Virus record (IMG/VR): IMGVR_UViG_3300030328_003618 | Coordinates: 6,738 to 70,737 of that record | Strand: one strand, 5' to 3' | DNA length: 64,000 nucleotides | Source of the DNA: a virus | Shown: positions 6,646 to 14,153 of the stretch, piece by piece | Numbering within the stretch: the stretch's first letter is position 1 | How the letters are laid out: every line of letters begins with the position of its first letter | The notes under the pieces: model-generated | What the model was told of the DNA's origin: nothing | The model's database searches: none | The model's input: the letters and a program-made list of their open reading frames with translations, nothing else | Position numbers and translations under genes: made by a program

Positions 6646-6836
6646 AAACTCTCCAAGCTAATGGATAAGCAGTGATTATAAGATGATATATGTGAAGATA
6701 ATCACAACACTTCCAAGAGTGTTAGCTTGCCTGAAAAGGCTTTATGAAGTTAGATAACAAATGTGGATACTTTGTAATTTATTGCACCGTGGACGAAGCA
6801 TTATAAGTTTATTCCACTTGGGGACTTGGAGAGTTT
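6646..6836 (+). ncRNA. putative structured ncRNA, family unknown
   Basis: Perfect 12-bp closing stem aaactctccaag/cttggagagttt enclosing hairpins gtgattat/ataatcac, aacactt/gagtgtt, gcct-GAAA-aggc and gtgga/tccac; no ORF. Confidence 0.6.
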
Positions 6837-6843
6837 TTAAATA

Positions 6844-7077
6844 ATGTTAAATGTAAAAAGCGATATGAACGAAGTGAATAATGATTCTTTACATAATGTT
6901 AGTGGCTGGTTTTTGGTTGAAATTACAAAACCAATGTCTACTACATTTAAAAAAGGAATGAATGCTTGGTGCAAGTACACAAGTAATAGAAATGACTTTA
7001 AGCTAAAAACATTGGCTGAGGATTATGAACAAGGATTTGGATTTGCATATAAACCGCACTTTAAAATTTGCCACTAA
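6844..7077 (+). CDS. hypothetical protein spanning a solitary cassette
   Basis: GTTAGTGGC (6898) is complementary to GCCACTAAC (7070-7078); the stop codon lies in TAAC. Confidence 0.55.
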   Translation: MLNVKSDMNEVNNDSLHNVSGWFLVEITKPMSTTFKKGMNAWCKYTSNRNDFKLKTLAEDYEQGFGFAYKPHFKICH

Positions 7078-7080
7078 CAT

Positions 7081-8847: not shown

Positions 8848-8902
8848 ACAACGATTAGTATAAGCACATACCCGATAGGGTTGGGTTTATACCTTGTTAG
8901 CT
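8846..8902 (+). repeat. attC-like site 0
   Basis: ACAAC...gtataagc/gtttatac...GTTAGCT. Confidence 0.6.
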
Positions 8903-8945
8903 GACGAAGTGAACTGTTTAAAAATTTAAAAAACAAAATATTATT

Positions 8946-9161
8946 ATGGACAATTATTTAAAAGACTTAGAAGAAATGAGCGAGCGAGGTGCAGACTTTG
9001 CTGAATACTACCACAAATTACTTGATGGTGTAAAAGACCTACAAGACAATCAAAGAGCAATGTTTGTTTGGGTTTTGATGAACAAAATTAGAGAAATTGG
9101 TTATGAGAACGGAAATAGAGCGACAAAAGAAGCTATGATTAAATTTTTAAATTGCAGCTAA
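8946..9161 (+). CDS. cassette ORF A
   Basis: Stop TAA lies within CAGCTAAC, complementary to GTTAGCTG at 8896. Confidence 0.7.
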   Translation: MDNYLKDLEEMSERGADFAEYYHKLLDGVKDLQDNQRAMFVWVLMNKIREIGYENGNRATKEAMIKFLNCS

Positions 9162-9214
9162 CGTATTGTATAAAATGCGTTGAGGAACGAAATGAATTTT
9201 ATATGGTGTTATGC
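9156..9214 (+). repeat. attC-like site 1
   Basis: GCTAAC...gtataaaat/attttatat...GTTATGC; loop gaggaacga. Confidence 0.75.
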
Positions 9215-9238
9215 ACCTTTAATTTAAAACTAATTAAA

Positions 9239-9436
9239 ATGAAAAAAAGAGAACTATATAAATTAGAATTTGTAAAAAACACTGACAACAAATGTATAGC
9301 TGTAATCAGAACTGATAATAATTACGGATTGCAAGGTTATGTTTATTCTGATGGTAGAATAAGAAAAGATTACACACCTTACACTATACCAAACTACATA
9401 GTAGAGGAATGTATGGGTATGTTTAATGGTGCATAA
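9239..9436 (+). CDS. cassette ORF B
   Basis: MKKRELY...; ends in GGTGCATAAC, complementary to GTTATGCACC at 9208. Confidence 0.7.
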   Translation: MKKRELYKLEFVKNTDNKCIAVIRTDNNYGLQGYVYSDGRIRKDYTPYTIPNYIVEECMGMFNGA

Positions 9437-9491
9437 CGGTTTGGCTATGTGCTGAACGAGGAACGAGTATAGCATATAGCTAGTGTTATAT
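9431..9491 (+). repeat. attC-like site 2
   Basis: GCATAAC...gctatgtgct/agcatatagc...GTTATAT; loop gaggaacga. Confidence 0.75.
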
Positions 9492-9522
9492 GCTTTTTAT
9501 TAACAGATTAAAACAGATTAAA

Positions 9523-9720
9523 ATGAGATTTATAGCTTCGATAAAATGGTTAGATAACGGAAACATACAAGATGATATGATTCTAAAAATTGGGGACATA
9601 GAAGAAGACGATGACGACATTTTCTTCTACTTAGATTCTGAAAGAGAATTGGAAGAATTTAAAAAAGAGGGTGTTCACGATTGGATTATTCTTGATGCAG
9701 TTAAAGATAGTTGCATATAA
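9523..9720 (+). CDS. cassette ORF C (acidic)
   Basis: MRFIASIK...; ends in GCATATAAC, complementary to GTTATATGC at 9485. Confidence 0.7.
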   Translation: MRFIASIKWLDNGNIQDDMILKIGDIEEDDDDIFFYLDSERELEEFKKEGVHDWIILDAVKDSCI

Positions 9721-9809
9721 CGGATGAGTATATAAATAGTGGCGACTAAACGCAAAGATAGATGATGGCACTAACGATGCCGAGCCATTATTTATATACA
9801 TTGTTAGGC
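9715..9809 (+). repeat. attC-like site 3
   Basis: ATATAAC...gtatataaatagtggc/gccattatttatatac...GTTAGGC. Confidence 0.8.
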
Positions 9810-9829
9810 ATCTTTTAAACTTATTAGAT

Positions 9830-9991
9830 ATGTATTTTGTAAACCATTATGTTATTGATTGGACTAAAGTAAAAACACAAGAAGATGTAATTGCTATTTT
9901 AAAAAACCTACAATTAGCATTTGAAAACCCCTCTGAAGATTTAGAGAAACTTTGTGTTTTGGTAAATAAGCAGACAGGTGAAAAAGTTTAA
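9830..9991 (+). CDS. cassette ORF D (53 aa, not in ORF track)
   Basis: MYFVNHYVIDWTKVKTQEDVIAILKNL...; flanked by GTTAGGCA and TGCCTAAT. Confidence 0.65.
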   Translation: MYFVNHYVIDWTKVKTQEDVIAILKNLQLAFENPSEDLEKLCVLVNKQTGEKV

Positions 9992-9995
9992 TTGT

Positions 9996-10047
9996 GCCTA
10001 ATGGTATAAGCAAATACCGTTTAAATGGAATTTAATTAATGTTATAA
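9996..10047 (+). repeat. attC-like site 4 (degenerate)
   Basis: GCCTAAT...GTTATAA with a weak internal palindrome. Confidence 0.55.
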
Positions 10048-10058
10048 AAAGTAAAATT

Positions 10059-10238
10059 ATGGAACCAGAGGAAAAAAGAATGTTAAGAACAATGAGATAT
10101 ATGGCTTGGGAAAGAGCCAAAGGAGAGTTAAGGAGTATGTTAGAAACCTATTGGCACGATAATGATAAATATGGCATAATGAAAGAAGCCATAGATGAAT
10201 TTATTGATGATGTTCAAGGTCACGCAAAGCAAGAATAA
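10059..10238 (+). CDS. cassette ORF E (59 aa, not in ORF track)
   Basis: MEPEEKRMLRTMRYMAWERAKGEL...; flanked by a 20-nt imperfect IR gttataaaaagtaaaattat/ataattttattgtttataac. Confidence 0.65.
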   Translation: MEPEEKRMLRTMRYMAWERAKGELRSMLETYWHDNDKYGIMKEAIDEFIDDVQGHAKQE

Positions 10239-10247
10239 TTTTATTGT

Positions 10248-10441
10248 TTATAACGCTACAACTAAACACAGTTATTTTTAAAGATTTATTAAGATGAAAA
10301 GACCAAAACAAACAGATAAAGAATGTAGAAGGCAAGGAATGACAGATGTTCCAGTTGCTAATTACTCTAAAATGCAGGATAAGTATATTGATTACTTAGA
10401 AAAGAAACTTAAAAATAATGGTGTTTTAGATGATGTTATTA
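10248..10441 (+). repeat. attC-like site 5 (long; contains an ORF start)
   Basis: TTATAAC...ctaaacacagttattttt/aaaaataatggtgttttag...GTTATTA. Confidence 0.65.
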
Positions 10442-10560
10442 AACACCGTGAACTGTTAATTGGTTTTTATAGGCATTTCTATTCTGAAATAGGATGGATA
10501 ACACATGAGGATTCAGCTATTGAAACAATTGATAAATACTTAAAATCAATTAATGGTTAA
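10294..10560 (+). CDS. ORF F, read across the attC-like junction
   Basis: Starts in the site 5 loop; GTT at 10435 is an in-frame Val. Confidence 0.65.
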   Translation: MKRPKQTDKECRRQGMTDVPVANYSKMQDKYIDYLEKKLKNNGVLDDVIKHRELLIGFYRHFYSEIGWITHEDSAIETIDKYLKSING

Positions 10561-10685
10561 TAATGGTAAGGCTATGATTAGTGCCATTTAAAATAAATAA
10601 ATTATGGAATACGAACTAAAAAGAATAGAAGCACCAAAAATTGAGGGTATGGATGAAATGGCATTAAATATAGCCAATGTTACCC
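10558..10685 (+). repeat. attC-like site 6 (long; contains an ORF start)
   Basis: TAATAAT...ggctatgattagtgccattt/aaatggcattaaatatagcc...GTTACCC. Confidence 0.7.
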
Positions 10686-10924
10686 AACGTTTTATTTCTG
10701 AGGTGCAAAAACAAGAAGAGGAACTATTTACAACTGCTTTACGAACTATGGCAGAACCTCCAATAAAAGGTGAAATAACGAAGGGAAAAATAAGGTGGAG
10801 AGGAATTAGAATAATAAGGCAACAAATAGGACTTGACTCTTATAGTTGGTTAGAGCAAAGAGGTAAACAAATAAGTCCTAAATTTCACATAGGAGCAAAG
10901 TTGCCTGACTTAAATGTTGGGTAA
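10604..10924 (+). CDS. ORF G, read across the attC-like junction
   Basis: Starts in the site 6 loop; GTT at 10679 is in frame; ends in AAATGTTGGGTAAC, complementary to GTTACCCAACGTTT. Confidence 0.7.
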   Translation: MEYELKRIEAPKIEGMDEMALNIANVTQRFISEVQKQEEELFTTALRTMAEPPIKGEITKGKIRWRGIRIIRQQIGLDSYSWLEQRGKQISPKFHIGAKLPDLNVG

Positions 10925-10984
10925 CGCCCCTTGTATGGTGGCGTATGGAATGCAATGAAATATGCACTATACAAATTGTTGTGT
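10919..10984 (+). repeat. attC-like site 7
   Basis: GGGTAAC...ttgtatggtg/cactatacaa...GTTGTGT. Confidence 0.75.
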
Positions 10985-11020
10985 GTAGTGTGGATTATTA
11001 ACAGATAAAAACTAATTGAA

Positions 11021-11197
11021 ATGAAAAAGTACATTCTAAAAGAATTAAAATACGGTTCTTATTTTCTTGATTTAAAAATGGGATGGGGTGAAGATATAAA
11101 TTTAGCTTTATTTTTTGATAGCGTTGAAGATGCTGAACGAGAGATGGAAAAACAATCAAGCGGTATTTATACTGTTATAACTATTTACATGAAATAG
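11021..11197 (+). CDS. cassette ORF H (58 aa, not in ORF track)
   Basis: MKKYILKELKYGSYF...; flanked by GTTGTGTGTAGTG and CATTACACACAAC. Confidence 0.65.
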   Translation: MKKYILKELKYGSYFLDLKMGWGEDINLALFFDSVEDAEREMEKQSSGIYTVITIYMK

Positions 11198-11203
11198 CAT
11201 TAC

Positions 11204-11255
11204 ACACAACGGTTTGAGTATGGAGCGTTTTAATGCTCTATACTTAGTGTTATGT
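11204..11255 (+). repeat. attC-like site 8
   Basis: ACACAAC...gagtatggagcgtt/aatgctctatactt...GTTATGT. Confidence 0.8.
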
Positions 11256-11275
11256 ACTTTTAATATAAGGAATAT

Positions 11276-11473
11276 ATGAAAGCAAGAGATTTAATAAAAG
11301 AATTGGAAAAACACCCAGATTGGGAAGTTACGGTAAGCGTTGATATTTCAACAAATGAGGATGAAAATGATAGACGAGCATTTGGTGAGCAAATAATAGA
11401 AGTTATAAATGAAAATAGTAGTAACCAATTTACTATATGTTTTGATGGTTATGATAACTATAATTGTACATAA
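11276..11473 (+). CDS. cassette ORF I
   Basis: Ends in GTACATAAC, complementary to GTTATGTAC at 11249. Confidence 0.7.
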   Translation: MKARDLIKELEKHPDWEVTVSVDISTNEDENDRRAFGEQIIEVINENSSNQFTICFDGYDNYNCT

Positions 11474-11537
11474 CATCCTTGTAAACGAGCTTGAGCGACA
11501 GTCGAGGTACGAGATTGCGTTTACAATACTGTTATAT
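11468..11537 (+). repeat. attC-like site 9
   Basis: ACATAAC...ttgtaaacg/cgtttacaa...GTTATAT; loop gaggtacga. Confidence 0.75.
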
Positions 11538-11616: not shown

Positions 11617-11955
11617 ATGAAAAAAGTTGAAACCATCATCAGAAAATCTCAATTCGATGATGTGAAATCGGCTCTCATGAACGTTAAGGTAACTTTCTTT
11701 AGTTATTGGGACGTGACTGGTGTCGGTAATGAGAAAATTGGTAACGTCTACAGAGGTGTTGAGTACAATACATCTGATATTCAAAGACGATACCTATCAA
11801 TAGTTGTATCTGATGAATTTTTAGATAGAACTGTAAAAGCTATTCTTGATTCTGCTTATACTGGCAAAGTTGGAGATGGTAAAATATTTGTAAGTGATAT
11901 CCAAGAAGCATATCGCATCAGAACTCGTGAAAGAGGAAACCAAACGCTTAATTAA
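11617..11955 (+). CDS. glnK: P-II nitrogen regulatory protein
   Basis: 112 aa; MKKVETIIR, T-loop YRGVEY, TGKVGDGKIFVS; adjacent to amt. Confidence 0.95.
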   Translation: MKKVETIIRKSQFDDVKSALMNVKVTFFSYWDVTGVGNEKIGNVYRGVEYNTSDIQRRYLSIVVSDEFLDRTVKAILDSAYTGKVGDGKIFVSDIQEAYRIRTRERGNQTLN

Positions 11956-11956
11956 T

Positions 11957-13183
11957 ATGGAAATGTTAACGGTAAACAACGTATGGATGATGATATGCAC
12001 TGGATTAGTGTTTTTCATGCACCTTGGTTTTTCATTCTTAGAGATTGGATTAACTAGACAAAAGAATACTATCAATATTTTATTCAAGAACATCTTCATA
12101 ATTTGTATGGGGCTTCTTGTTTATTACATTGGTGGTTTTAACCTAATGTATCCTGGATTTTCTGAAGGGGATTTAGGTATCTTAAAGTTTGCAGGATTTG
12201 GAATTGATGCTCCTGTAAATGGTATGACTGCTGAATACGCTAGTGGAGGATATACTTGGTGGACAGATTTCTTGTTTCAAGGTATGTTTGCAGCTACTGC
12301 TGCAACTATTGTAAGTGGAGCTGTAGCAGAACGTATCAAGCTAACGAGCTTCATGCTATTTAGTTTTATCTATGTAGGATTTGTATACCCTATAGTAGGT
12401 AGCTGGAAATGGGGAGGAGGATTCTTAGATAGTCTAGGATTCTACGACTTCGCAGGTTCTACATTAGTACATTCAGTCGGTGGATGGGCTGCTTTAGTAG
12501 CTGTATGGTTACTTGGAGCTAGATTAGGTAAGTTTAATAAAGGCAAAGCTATTCCAATATTTGGTCATAACATTCCTTTTGCTACGGCAGGAGTATTAAT
12601 ATTGTGGCTAGGTTGGTTTGGTTTTAATGGAGGGAGTGTACTTAGTGCAGACCCTACATTAACTAGTTTAACTTTAGTAACAACTTGCTTAGCCGCTGCC
12701 GCAGGAGGAATAGGGGCTGCTATTACATCTTATATTAAAGATAGTAGTTTTGACTTATCCATGTTCTTAAATGGAATCTTAGGAGGTCTTGTAGCTATTA
12801 CAGCAGGAGCAGACCAAATGAGTCCTAATGAATCTGTAGTAATAGGATTAATTGGAGGTATACTTGTAGTTCTTGTTGTAAATCTGTTAGACAAACTTAA
12901 ATTAGATGATCCGGTAGGAGCTATTGCAGTTCACTTAGGTTGTGGAATTTGGGGAACTTTAGCTGTAGGTATCTTTGGTAACATGGCAGGATTCAATCAG
13001 TTCCTAACACAGCTTTCAGGAGTTTGCATAATTGGAGCTTTCTGCTTAATCTCTTCATTCATAATTCTTTTTATCATTAAGAAGACTATGGGGCTTAGAG
13101 TTTCTAGAGAAGAAGAACTTGAAGGACTAGACACAGCAGAACATAAAATGTCAGCTTATCCTGACTTTAGACTTAAATCTTAA
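11957..13183 (+). CDS. amtB: ammonium transporter (Amt family)
   Basis: FQGMFAATAATIVSGAVAER, DFAGSTLVH, LWLGWFGFNGGS, LDDPVGAIAVH (twin His retained); start re-assigned to MEMLTV. Confidence 0.97.
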   Translation: MEMLTVNNVWMMICTGLVFFMHLGFSFLEIGLTRQKNTINILFKNIFIICMGLLVYYIGGFNLMYPGFSEGDLGILKFAGFGIDAPVNGMTAEYASGGYTWWTDFLFQGMFAATAATIVSGAVAERIKLTSFMLFSFIYVGFVYPIVGSWKWGGGFLDSLGFYDFAGSTLVHSVGGWAALVAVWLLGARLGKFNKGKAIPIFGHNIPFATAGVLILWLGWFGFNGGSVLSADPTLTSLTLVTTCLAAAAGGIGAAITSYIKDSSFDLSMFLNGILGGLVAITAGADQMSPNESVVIGLIGGILVVLVVNLLDKLKLDDPVGAIAVHLGCGIWGTLAVGIFGNMAGFNQFLTQLSGVCIIGAFCLISSFIILFIIKKTMGLRVSREEELEGLDTAEHKMSAYPDFRLKS

Positions 13184-13193
13184 TTTTAAAAAA

Positions 13194-14153
13194 ATGAAAT
13201 ATATATTTTTATTATTGGCACTTATTACTACAGTGTCTTACGGACAAGACAACACTAAATCAGTTTCTTTTGAAGGTAGTTTAGATGTTTATTACAGAAG
13301 GAATTTAAGCACAGCAAATACAGAAGTAGCACCAGCTACTTCTTTTGCTAACCTAAATGGATTCTCTCTTGGAATGTTTAATTTAATAAGTAGTTACGAT
13401 ACAAAAAATACTGGGTTTGTAGCAGACTTAGTATTTGGACCAAGAGGTGAAGATGCAGTATTTTTATCAAGTGGAAACTCAAGCATTATCAATCAGCTAT
13501 ATGCTTATTGGGATGTTAGCGACAATGTTACCTTGACGATGGGTAACTTCAATACCTTTCTAGGTTACGAAGTAATATCTCCTACTGGAAACTTTAACTA
13601 TTCTACTAGTTATATGTTTTCATATGGACCATTTTCTCATAGTGGATTAAAGGCAGACATCAAACTAGCAAGTGATTTCACTTTTATGTTAGCTGTTTTA
13701 AATGCTACTGATGAAACGGAATTTAATTCTTCAAACTTCAGTACACTTGGAACGCAATTAGCTTATAAGAACACTTATTTAAACGCTATTTATGGTAAAC
13801 AAAGCCCAACTTCTGAAGCTACTTTTCAAGTAGATTTAACTGGTTGTTATGATTTATCTAAAAAGTTTTATTTAGGAATTAATAGTACCTATAACGATAC
13901 TGAAGGAGATGGATTTTATGGCGTTGCTTTATATCCTCAATATTCATTTGGTAAACTAAAAGCTGGAATTAGAACAGAATATTTTTCTGATAAAGTTTCT
14001 GATGTTATAAACTTAACAAGCACTTTAGATTATACAATTGAGAATTTAAATCTAAAACTAGAATATAGATTTGATAAATCTAGTGATGTAGTATTTGAGC
14101 AAAAAGATAACCTATCTAGCGTTATTCTAGCCGCAATTTACTCTTTTAATTAA
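13194..14153 (+). CDS. outer-membrane beta-barrel porin, Bacteroidota amt-associated type
   Basis: Signal peptide, amphipathic strands, GNFNTFLGYE..NFNYS motif, C-terminal YSF. Confidence 0.8.
   Translation: MKYIFLLLALITTVSYGQDNTKSVSFEGSLDVYYRRNLSTANTEVAPATSFANLNGFSLGMFNLISSYDTKNTGFVADLVFGPRGEDAVFLSSGNSSIINQLYAYWDVSDNVTLTMGNFNTFLGYEVISPTGNFNYSTSYMFSYGPFSHSGLKADIKLASDFTFMLAVLNATDETEFNSSNFSTLGTQLAYKNTYLNAIYGKQSPTSEATFQVDLTGCYDLSKKFYLGINSTYNDTEGDGFYGVALYPQYSFGKLKAGIRTEYFSDKVSDVINLTSTLDYTIENLNLKLEYRFDKSSDVVFEQKDNLSSVILAAIYSFN

Follow-up and report, generated by a model that had tools for sequence, protein, structure and literature searches.

The DNA described here is a window of 64,000 nucleotides (nt), bases 6738-70737 of the 70,737-base virus record IMGVR_UViG_3300030328_003618, which is rated complete. 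Between positions 8850 and 11533 of the window (the whole stretch that was analysed; positions are counted from its first base), the plus strand carries a row of ten sites resembling the attC sites of integron cassettes, with small open reading frames (ORFs) between them. Each site opens with an R'' box (AAC or AAT, together AAY) and ends with an R' box (GTT). In two of them, S5 and S6, the start codon of an ORF lies in the loop of a long hairpin, the ORF reads through the 3' arm, and the GTT is an in-frame valine codon; the part of such a protein up to the valine is called its head here, the remainder its tail. The array is probably an integron-type cluster of attC sites lacking an integron integrase (CALIN) in the genome of a lytic phage that infects marine Bacteroidota, in which genes are inverted relative to their sites and heads and tails are, on rare occasions, re-paired in frame at the GTT.

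Long hairpins with coding heads

The following features, all in the window, carry the argument.

10252-10437, plus strand: site S5, a long hairpin, with R'' box AAC at 10252-10254, arms at 10264-10281 and 10409-10426, and R' box GTT at 10435-10437
10294-10560, plus strand: ORF5, 88 residues; head of codons 1-48 (10294-10437, ending VLDDV), tail 10438-10557, stop TAA at 10558-10560
10435-10564, plus strand: tail unit U5, with inverted ends GTTATTAA (from 10435) and TTAATAAT (ending at 10564)
10562-10681, plus strand: site S6, a long hairpin, with R'' box AAT at 10562-10564, arms at 10570-10589 and 10656-10675, and R' box GTT at 10679-10681
10604-10924, plus strand: ORF6, 106 residues; head of codons 1-26 (ending ALNIANV), tail 10682-10921, stop TAA at 10922-10924
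10561-10926, plus strand: putative mobile unit, S6 with ORF6 up to its AAC, one conserved block with unlike flanks
10923-10980, plus strand: site S7, a short hairpin that closes tail unit U6 and differs in every relative carrying U6
6843-7078, plus strand: solitary unit, with AAT at 6843, a short hairpin, ATGs at 6844 and 6865, an in-frame valine GTT at 6898, and AAC at 7076-7078

The long hairpins with start codons in their loops, which a first-pass annotation of the window had pointed out, were recovered with spans of 186 nt from AAC to GTT in S5 (ATG at 10294) and 120 nt from AAT to GTT in S6 (ATG at 10604). The S5 span exceeds the usual length of attC sites, which is about 57-141 nt. The arms of S5 are 18 nt long and 89% complementary (inverted repeat I9; 29 pairs by duplexfold), and those of S6 are 20 nt long and 85% complementary (I7; 19 pairs, including two G-T wobbles on the plus strand). 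The folding energy of S6 is matched by two of 200 shuffled sequences (z = -2.4) and that of S5 by 110 of 200 (z = 0.09). Support for the long stems thus comes from covariation of the arms, not from folding energy: in loci L011, L023, and L024, where the protein head is homologous, the S5 arms differ in sequence yet still pair (20-26 pairs).

The stop codon of ORF5 adjoins the next R'' box, and that of ORF6 sits inside its R'' box, GGGTAAC. The ends of U6 form a perfect 10-nt inverted pair (GTTACCCAAC from 10679 and GTTGGGTAAC from 10916); the ends of U5 match at seven of eight positions, all A/T, and are weaker evidence. As had been annotated, the tail after S5 contains no methionine, and in the tail after S6 the first in-frame ATG stands at 10748. 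A structure model of ORF6 places a helix of residues 16-50 across the junction, at low confidence (predicted local distance difference test score, pLDDT, 64.7), and in this model the residues encoded by the arm would begin a long helix that continues into the tail.

The solitary unit behaves alike, as the first-pass annotation held: its GTT at 6898 is in phase 0 with the ORF, and 6896-6913 is an inverted copy of 7063-7080 (I13). Its hairpin is weak, with a 7-9 bp stem recognized by eye, and having no partner site it is not validated by the detector described below. A structured non-coding element of 190 nt (6646-6836) lies upstream of this unit; an 80% identical copy in L006 (1078-1223) directly precedes an ORF5-type hairpin.

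Both the S5 and the S6 GTT are in phase 0 of their own ORFs according to a script check, which bears out the claim that the ORFs cross the right arm with GTT as valine. Over codons 1-36 of ORF5, synonymous and non-synonymous differences stand at 10:1 against L011, 10:2 against L014, and 14:5 against L018. By these counts the ORF5 head is under purifying selection in this frame, and it is presumably translated. By our own reading, no stop codon interrupts the frame within 28 codons after the GTT in nine of ten distinct hairpin-bearing loci, and several ORF5-type tails carry in-frame CxxC..CxxC motifs. The unit that follows the head in L013 starts at an ATG of its own, and there the head ORF ends three codons past the valine.

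A bias in the frame of GTT across many arrays, which the first-pass annotation had proposed as a check, was found. Hairpins chained by inverted unit ends were taken as validated sites (60 sites in 16 of the 38 sequences searched), and an ORF was counted as a loop start when its ATG lay inside a site and it ran at least 20 codons past the GTT. Among the 41 loop-start ORFs, 36 have the GTT in phase 0, five in phase 2, and none in phase 1, as compared with 46.1% in phase 0 for GTTs inside ordinary ORFs of the same sequences (binomial p = 3e-8). Of the five exceptions, four do not begin in a loop: three ATGs overlap or just precede the GTT, and one false site lies in a 349-residue ORF. At least ten different arm peptides obey the rule, for example ALNIANV, ELLNLFSV, NNVLDDV, LNLGSV, LTIPV, and CAIQIV. 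The three in-phase cases of the window taken alone would be weak evidence (0.46 cubed is about 0.1).

The restriction to chained sites follows from the noise of the alternatives. An energy-only hairpin detector flagged sites everywhere, loose chaining was too noisy, and a seed-based detector alone gave 1022 matches against 548 in shuffled sequence; therefore only sites chained by inverted cassette ends were used. This drops true single sites, among them those of L006, L007, L010, and L011, S4 of the window, and the solitary unit. A companion claim, that a cassette having an ATG of its own is out of frame with its GTT, survives in part: by our own reading three of seven (S3, S4, and S8) are in phase 0, and a division into two cassette classes by frame is not strict.

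It might be objected that the loop ATGs are chance extensions and that the real genes start past the GTT, or that there are no genes at all. The ORFs are indeed short and AT-rich, and Pfam gave no family above its cut-off for ORF5, ORF6, or the solitary ORF. Such an artefact is nevertheless hardly credible given the purifying selection on the head, which contradicts it, the absence of methionine from the U5 tail, the 36 of 41 ORFs in phase 0, the in-frame cysteine motifs of the tails, and the 229 homologues found for ORF6.

Ownership of the hairpin and re-pairing at the valine codon

An attC site lies 3' of its cassette ORF and moves with it, with the bottom strand folded and cut at G|TT. Applied to the present array, this canonical scheme would assign each hairpin to the cassette in front; headless cassettes would routinely borrow an N-terminus from the upstream site, as the first-pass annotation had suggested, and each reshuffling would produce a new fusion. 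The sites do look attC-like, and GTT is the canonical crossover (Qi et al. 2023, PMC9892861). Here, however, the site does not lie 3' of the ORF with which it moves. The hairpin belongs to the downstream gene, on which four lines of evidence agree: homology blocks, breakpoints in other metagenomes, the folding strand, and the geometry of an array in the jumbo phage G001 (described in the next section).

The block from 10560/61 to 10926, comprising S6 and ORF6 up to the AAC, is kept in eight loci (L026-L033), all of which have another unit before it and another hairpin after it. When the 38 sequences were compared all against all, with each sequence pair counted from both sides, homology blocks start 34 times at an AAY edge, once at a GTT edge, and 191 times elsewhere; they end 27 times at AAY, 13 times at GTT, and 196 times elsewhere. 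Seven site pairs share a similar hairpin and downstream unit with different upstream units, against none with the converse; the identity threshold used is near background for AT-rich DNA, and only the high-identity pairs are meaningful. Furthermore, contigs of three other studies (X16, X5, and X4) stop or change at 10561 and at 10922-10925. One record of run X16 (record 3) covers exactly 10561-10927 and another (record 4) holds 10922-10985, that is, S7 alone, both with unlike flanks; the X16 contigs over parts of the window derive from an RNA library and cannot show transcription here. Finally, of the two strands the coding one gives the better fold in 53 of the 60 validated sites, and with a strand-neutral detector that gives no credit for wobble pairs it does so in 60 of 68 (five opposite, three equal; Wilcoxon p of about 2e-11).

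Since the hairpin moves with the downstream gene, ordinary cassette moves keep head and tail together. The canonical scheme is therefore very improbable as the routine mechanism, even though one head occurs with nine clusters of tails joined exactly at the GTT and 13 homology blocks end there. It is at odds with the block starts and site pairs given above, with the folding of the coding strand, with the upstream cassette, which differs up to the AAC or AAT between the window and L006-L010 while the hairpin is 93-98% identical, with the hairpin after U6, which differs in every relative, and with the retention of the head family in 93 of 106 ORF6 homologues among the matches listed. The borrowing of heads from an upstream attC is thus not supported; that shuffling makes fusion proteins holds insofar as re-paired forms joined at the GTT exist, and falls short insofar as such re-pairing is the rarer event.

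The re-paired forms occur in nature and are most evident for ORF5. A search with ORF5 returned 39 proteins, and the same arm peptide (NNxVLDxx) is present in 23 of 40 when the protein of the window is included. The tails of these 23 fall into nine clusters without detectable mutual similarity, joined exactly at the valine. Comparison of the DNA with that of the window gives 93-98% identity over the last 60 nt up to the GTT in L001, L006, L007, L009, and L010; the 60 nt after it show 25-32% identity in L007, L009, and L010, and 50-52% in L006 and L001, whose tails are diverged homologues. Over the 60 nt that precede the AAC or AAT, identity to the window is 25-45%. The replacement tails are bounded by their own inverted ends and closed by an ordinary short hairpin. 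By our own reading of the comparison table, L009 and L027 have a common tail with different heads, L009 and L001 a common head start with different tails. L026 and L027 keep the outer arms of S5 around other loops with other heads, and contigs in other runs diverge from the window at 10438 and at 10980-10985. A profile of the head matched 30 representative clusters among 1.84 billion proteins, and a search with the tail alone (ORF5 residues 48-88) gave no candidate. In tblastn against 50,697 deposited phages, ORF5 and ORF6 had no match.

ORF6, by contrast, is mostly conserved over its full length. Of its 229 homologues, 106 could be anchored among the matches listed (120), and 93 of these 106 retain the head family. 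Among the same matches, the ORF6 tail occurs with foreign heads in eight proteins (at least six other heads) and with very short heads in six. The expectation that one head would be found on different tails exactly at the valine is thus borne out by ORF5 and its nine tail clusters, and much less so by ORF6.

The ORF5-type head also occurs in another group of phages (L012 and L014-L022), on proteins without a hairpin site, where genes are separated by a direct repeat ending in AACTAAAACAAGACTAAGATG; the tails of these proteins also look shuffled, with common VIEELEE segments.

The exchange of whole loops in S5 admits another reading, in which S5 is composite and its head a nested unit (from a GTT at 10273 to an AAT at 10419) set between two mutually pairing half-sites of 15-16 nt, such that head and tail would be adjacent cassettes and a hairpin-less site would be read through. 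The inner inverted ends GTTATTTTTAA and TTAAAAATAAT, which belong to I9, fit this arrangement, as do L026 and L027, in which the outer arms are retained with other inner ends and heads, and contigs of run X16 in which 10234-10255 and 10414-10443 are retained and separated by 151 or 773 other letters. We regard it as improbable all the same: by our own reading no inner pair of GTT and AAY is present in S6 or in the sites of about 120 nt in G001, a hairpin-less site of 15 nt has no known activity, and in L006-L010 the outer arms always accompany the window-type head.

The array, its phage, and a possible recombinase

The array as a whole comprises the following features.

8850-11533, plus strand: cassette array S0-S9, ten attC-like sites with small ORFs between them, all on the plus strand
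8850/8896, 9160/9208, 9435/9485, 9719/9803, and 10000/10041, plus strand: starts of AAC (AAT in S4) and GTT in S0 to S4
10252/10435, 10562/10679, 10923/10978, 11208/11249, and 11472/11531, plus strand: starts of AAC (AAT in S6) and GTT in S5 to S9
9159-9161, 9434-9436, 9718-9720, 10558-10560, 10922-10924, and 11471-11473, plus strand: stop codons TAA that close a cassette

All ten sites share one layout, with AAC (AAT in S4 and S6), a short unpaired spacer, an imperfect stem-loop, a second spacer, and GTT; S4 was identified by eye only, being missed by the hairpin detector. The inverse core boxes R'' and R' of the attC definition are thus present in ten of ten, as are the imperfect hairpin and the unpaired spacers beside the R boxes (usually 6 nt before the stem and 4 nt after it). 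One extra G was seen by eye in the left arm of S7. By ORF reading, six of the nine window cassettes take their stop codon from the TAAC or TAAT box that closes them, as its TAA. Cassette-specific inverted ends are clear in five of nine units (I2, I10, I23, U5, and U6), for example 10041-10060 paired with 10235-10254 (20 nt, 90%) and 9208-9222 with 9423-9437, and the cassette start is complementary to its own R'' box in I2, I10, I13, I23, and U6. Complementarity of a cassette's start to its own end is a hallmark of integron cassettes.

Upstream of the window, terminase-like and portal-like genes were recognized by ORF reading, and the minus strand of the record carries long structural genes. 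No integron integrase, other tyrosine recombinase, serine recombinase, or Y1 transposase is encoded in the 70.7-kb record, where TIGR02249 and PF00589 have no match, so that the adjacent IntI and attI of a complete integron are absent. With ten attC-like sites in a row and no recombinase gene, the array is therefore a CALIN in a phage. Site S1 has an 84% match in Polaribacter phage P12002S, whose layout is the same. CALINs have been reported in virulent phages, including Polaribacter phage P12002L, a sister phage of P12002S, one attC of which is recombined by IntI1 (Qi et al. 2023, PMC9892861). The ORF6 family is nearly absent from 185,579 species genomes (two loci, both contigs of metagenome-assembled genomes), and a host-integron origin of the ORF6 cassette is therefore not shown.

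An array with a neighbouring enzyme was found in G001, a complete jumbo phage of 265,845 bases with terminal repeats. Here, an array of about 9 kb with hairpin sites of about 120 nt runs across the record ends (L053, L054, L055, and L029) and has its end immediately 5' of a gene that points the same way and encodes a tyrosine recombinase of the Xer/IntI group (267 residues; 177 bits to XerA and 158 bits to TIGR02249, whose cut-off is 265). Read away from the recombinase, units come before hairpins, as they do in a normal integron, and only the ORFs are on the other strand; 13 of the 20 validated sites are loop starts in phase 0. The G001 system would thus be a phage-encoded, integron-like one with inverted genes.

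Chromosomes of Bacteroidota carry the conserved arm motif as well. This 15-nt motif, allowing one mismatch, occurs in 145 of 401 Bacteroidota genomes; a reversed control also matches often, so that only exact and clustered matches are meaningful. Exact matches were found in at least 18 places in 17 genomes among the matches listed, and clustered matches antisense to neighbouring genes in L072 (G383:C3) and L073 (G144:C6). A hairpin is present at three of nine examined matches (two chromosome loci); the flanking ORFs are on the opposite strand at all three, and the other six matches have no hairpin. In G301:C1 (2606854-2617559), two motif matches lie about 9 kb from a 378-residue tyrosine recombinase.

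The lack of a recombinase in the phage also invites an explanation without any site-specific enzyme, in which the hairpins are regulatory RNA or DNA elements (for a loop start codon, processing, or termination) and are exchanged by homologous or illegitimate recombination, as in the promoter early stem-loops (PeSLs) of T4-type phages. The PeSLs, conserved stem-loop repeats between small non-essential genes that mediate shuffling (Arbiol et al. 2010, PMC2839356; PMC4122927), provide a precedent, including the minicircles described in PMC2839356. Moreover, G-T wobbles favour the mRNA-sense strand, which would explain the strand bias, and the arm sequence is conserved across many cassettes (for example ALNIANV) and offers microhomology. 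We nevertheless consider this explanation unlikely. The cassette-specific inverted ends, such as the perfect 10-nt pair of U6, suit folded R'' and R' boxes in an excised circle, whereas homologous exchange needs none, and it cannot create sharp AAY and GTT junctions with unrelated sequence beyond. The same arm motif stands antisense to genes in Bacteroidota chromosomes (a small sample), and the site of the sister phage is a substrate of IntI1 (PMC9892861).

Scans for regulatory signals point the same way. Sigma-70-like promoters are no more frequent than in shuffles (14, against 16.3 +/- 4.7), and of four terminator-like matches (0.8 +/- 0.9 in shuffles) one, at 11214-11247, is the stem of the S8 hairpin, the others not being attC-like hairpins. 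The combination that defines a PeSL, a sigma-70-like promoter with a terminator stem-loop in each repeat, was thus not found in the array by a scan without Bacteroidota promoter types. Rfam and tRNA scans of the window found nothing.

We therefore return to the inverted CALIN as the probable explanation. In this scheme the cassette genes would be turned round with respect to the attC-like hairpin, as compared with ordinary cassettes, so that a cassette begins with the hairpin and ends with TAA|C. The folding strand would be the coding strand, and the main crossover would fall at the AA|C edge before the hairpin, moving head and tail as one cassette. Because the hairpin stands at the 5' end of the gene, many start codons would come to lie in the apical loop, and translation of the 3' arm and the R' box would yield peptides such as ALNIANV and VLDDV, with GTT as valine in one fixed phase. 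A rarer exchange at or within a few bases of the GTT would re-pair heads and tails; it might arise by recombination of the other, less active strand, which for other sites is lower and not zero (Qi et al., PMC9892861), or within the conserved arm. With all sites in one phase, each such exchange would give an open chimeric gene. The enzyme may be an Xer/IntI-like recombinase supplied by the host or by a co-infecting phage; the enzyme, the exact cut points, and translation itself are inferred.

Several points weigh against this explanation. The phage encodes no recombinase of the four families, and recombination is known here from sequence only. The G001 enzyme is short and does not reach the cut-off for integron integrases, the comparison with chromosomes is small, and the S5 hairpin is energetically no better than shuffled sequence. 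The phase counts are non-independent, many hairpins being homologous, and a common origin of all sites could explain the shared phase without any selection for compatibility. Protein matches come from gene calls within set length limits, because of which heads with an early stop, as in L013, are under-sampled. The linkage of S6 to ORF6 could reflect selection on the ORF that spans them and not the cut point, an objection that the variable hairpin downstream of U6 (S7) escapes. The folding bias towards the coding strand is equally expected of hairpins that act in the mRNA.

A further reading, which we put forward tentatively, goes beyond rare re-pairing. It treats the system as an inside-out integron of Bacteroidota phages with phase-locked coding leaders, in which exchange at either edge of the hairpin combines a pool of heads with a pool of tails into small proteins. 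Its tails would include zinc-ribbon and other kinds and could possibly be early-gene effectors. If true, the system would be the counterpart of exon shuffling in viruses of prokaryotes, and it would offer a way for new cassettes to be born.

Relation to known systems and accompanying observations

Genes for the internal proteins of phage T4 carry a capsid-targeting leader, a conserved short N-terminus on diverse bodies, in a hypervariable locus. The present heads likewise are short conserved N-termini on diverse bodies; the T4 leader has no hairpin recombination site.

The CALINs of phages (PMC9892861) have in common with the window AAC..GTT inverse cores, an imperfect hairpin, cassette-specific complementarity, small promoterless ORFs, and the lack of a phage integrase. 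In contrast to them, the hairpin here precedes the gene, moves with it, and folds best on the coding strand; the start codon stands in the loop, with the 3' arm and the GTT read as codons in one fixed phase. From the PeSLs (promoter plus terminator, driven by homology; PMC2839356 and PMC4122927), the array differs in its unenriched promoters, its R boxes, its cassette-specific inverted ends, and its coding repeat.

ORFs that cross a GTT crossover are known from class 1 integrons: ORF-11 and ORF-18 start in the recombination site attI1 and cross the GTT, and N-terminal fusions of aac(6')-Ib as well as fused cassettes have been described (PMC8876359; also PMC4670013). There, too, an ORF crosses the GTT crossover into the cassette, and some cassettes use a start supplied from upstream. 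These are single attI1 instances or cases of attC loss, mostly with translational coupling, whereas here intact attC-like sites encode, array-wide, heads of 14-50 residues with purifying selection and a common phase. S5 and S6 retain both R boxes and long paired arms and are thus not fused cassettes of the class 1 kind. A limited literature search found no paper on intact attC-type sites that precede a gene and encode phase-locked leaders.

Integron sites are usually seen as non-coding tails of cassettes; here they are reversed, stand at the front of the gene, and encode the start and the first 14-50 residues in a single universal phase. The orientation of attC relative to the gene is thus not fixed, which bears on the origin of cassettes, and the array provides a specific mechanism, open to experiment, by which domains of phage proteins can be shuffled in frame. 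In addition, the start-codon calls of many small phage ORFs can be corrected; tails without methionine would otherwise be missed or truncated.

Three smaller observations accompany the array. A second DNA box, GTT-N10-G(T/C)GAAC(T/A)GTT, stands at a fixed distance after R' (8896-8918 and 10435-10457 in the window; also in L006, L011, and L024, and at 1303-1325 and 1567-1589 of L056). It is non-coding after S0 and in P12002S and is translated as RELL in ORF5-type tails; because of the non-coding cases, the RELL protein motif is partly a DNA motif. Several short hairpin loops have in common a GAGGAACGA(A/G)-like motif, sometimes with an ATG after it (9180-9195 in S1, 9455-9470 in S2, 6865-6880, 3340-3355 of L026, and L027). 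Lastly, 3' of the array, ORF reading of 11617-14153 identified P-II-like, ammonium-transporter-like, and porin-like ORFs inside the phage record.

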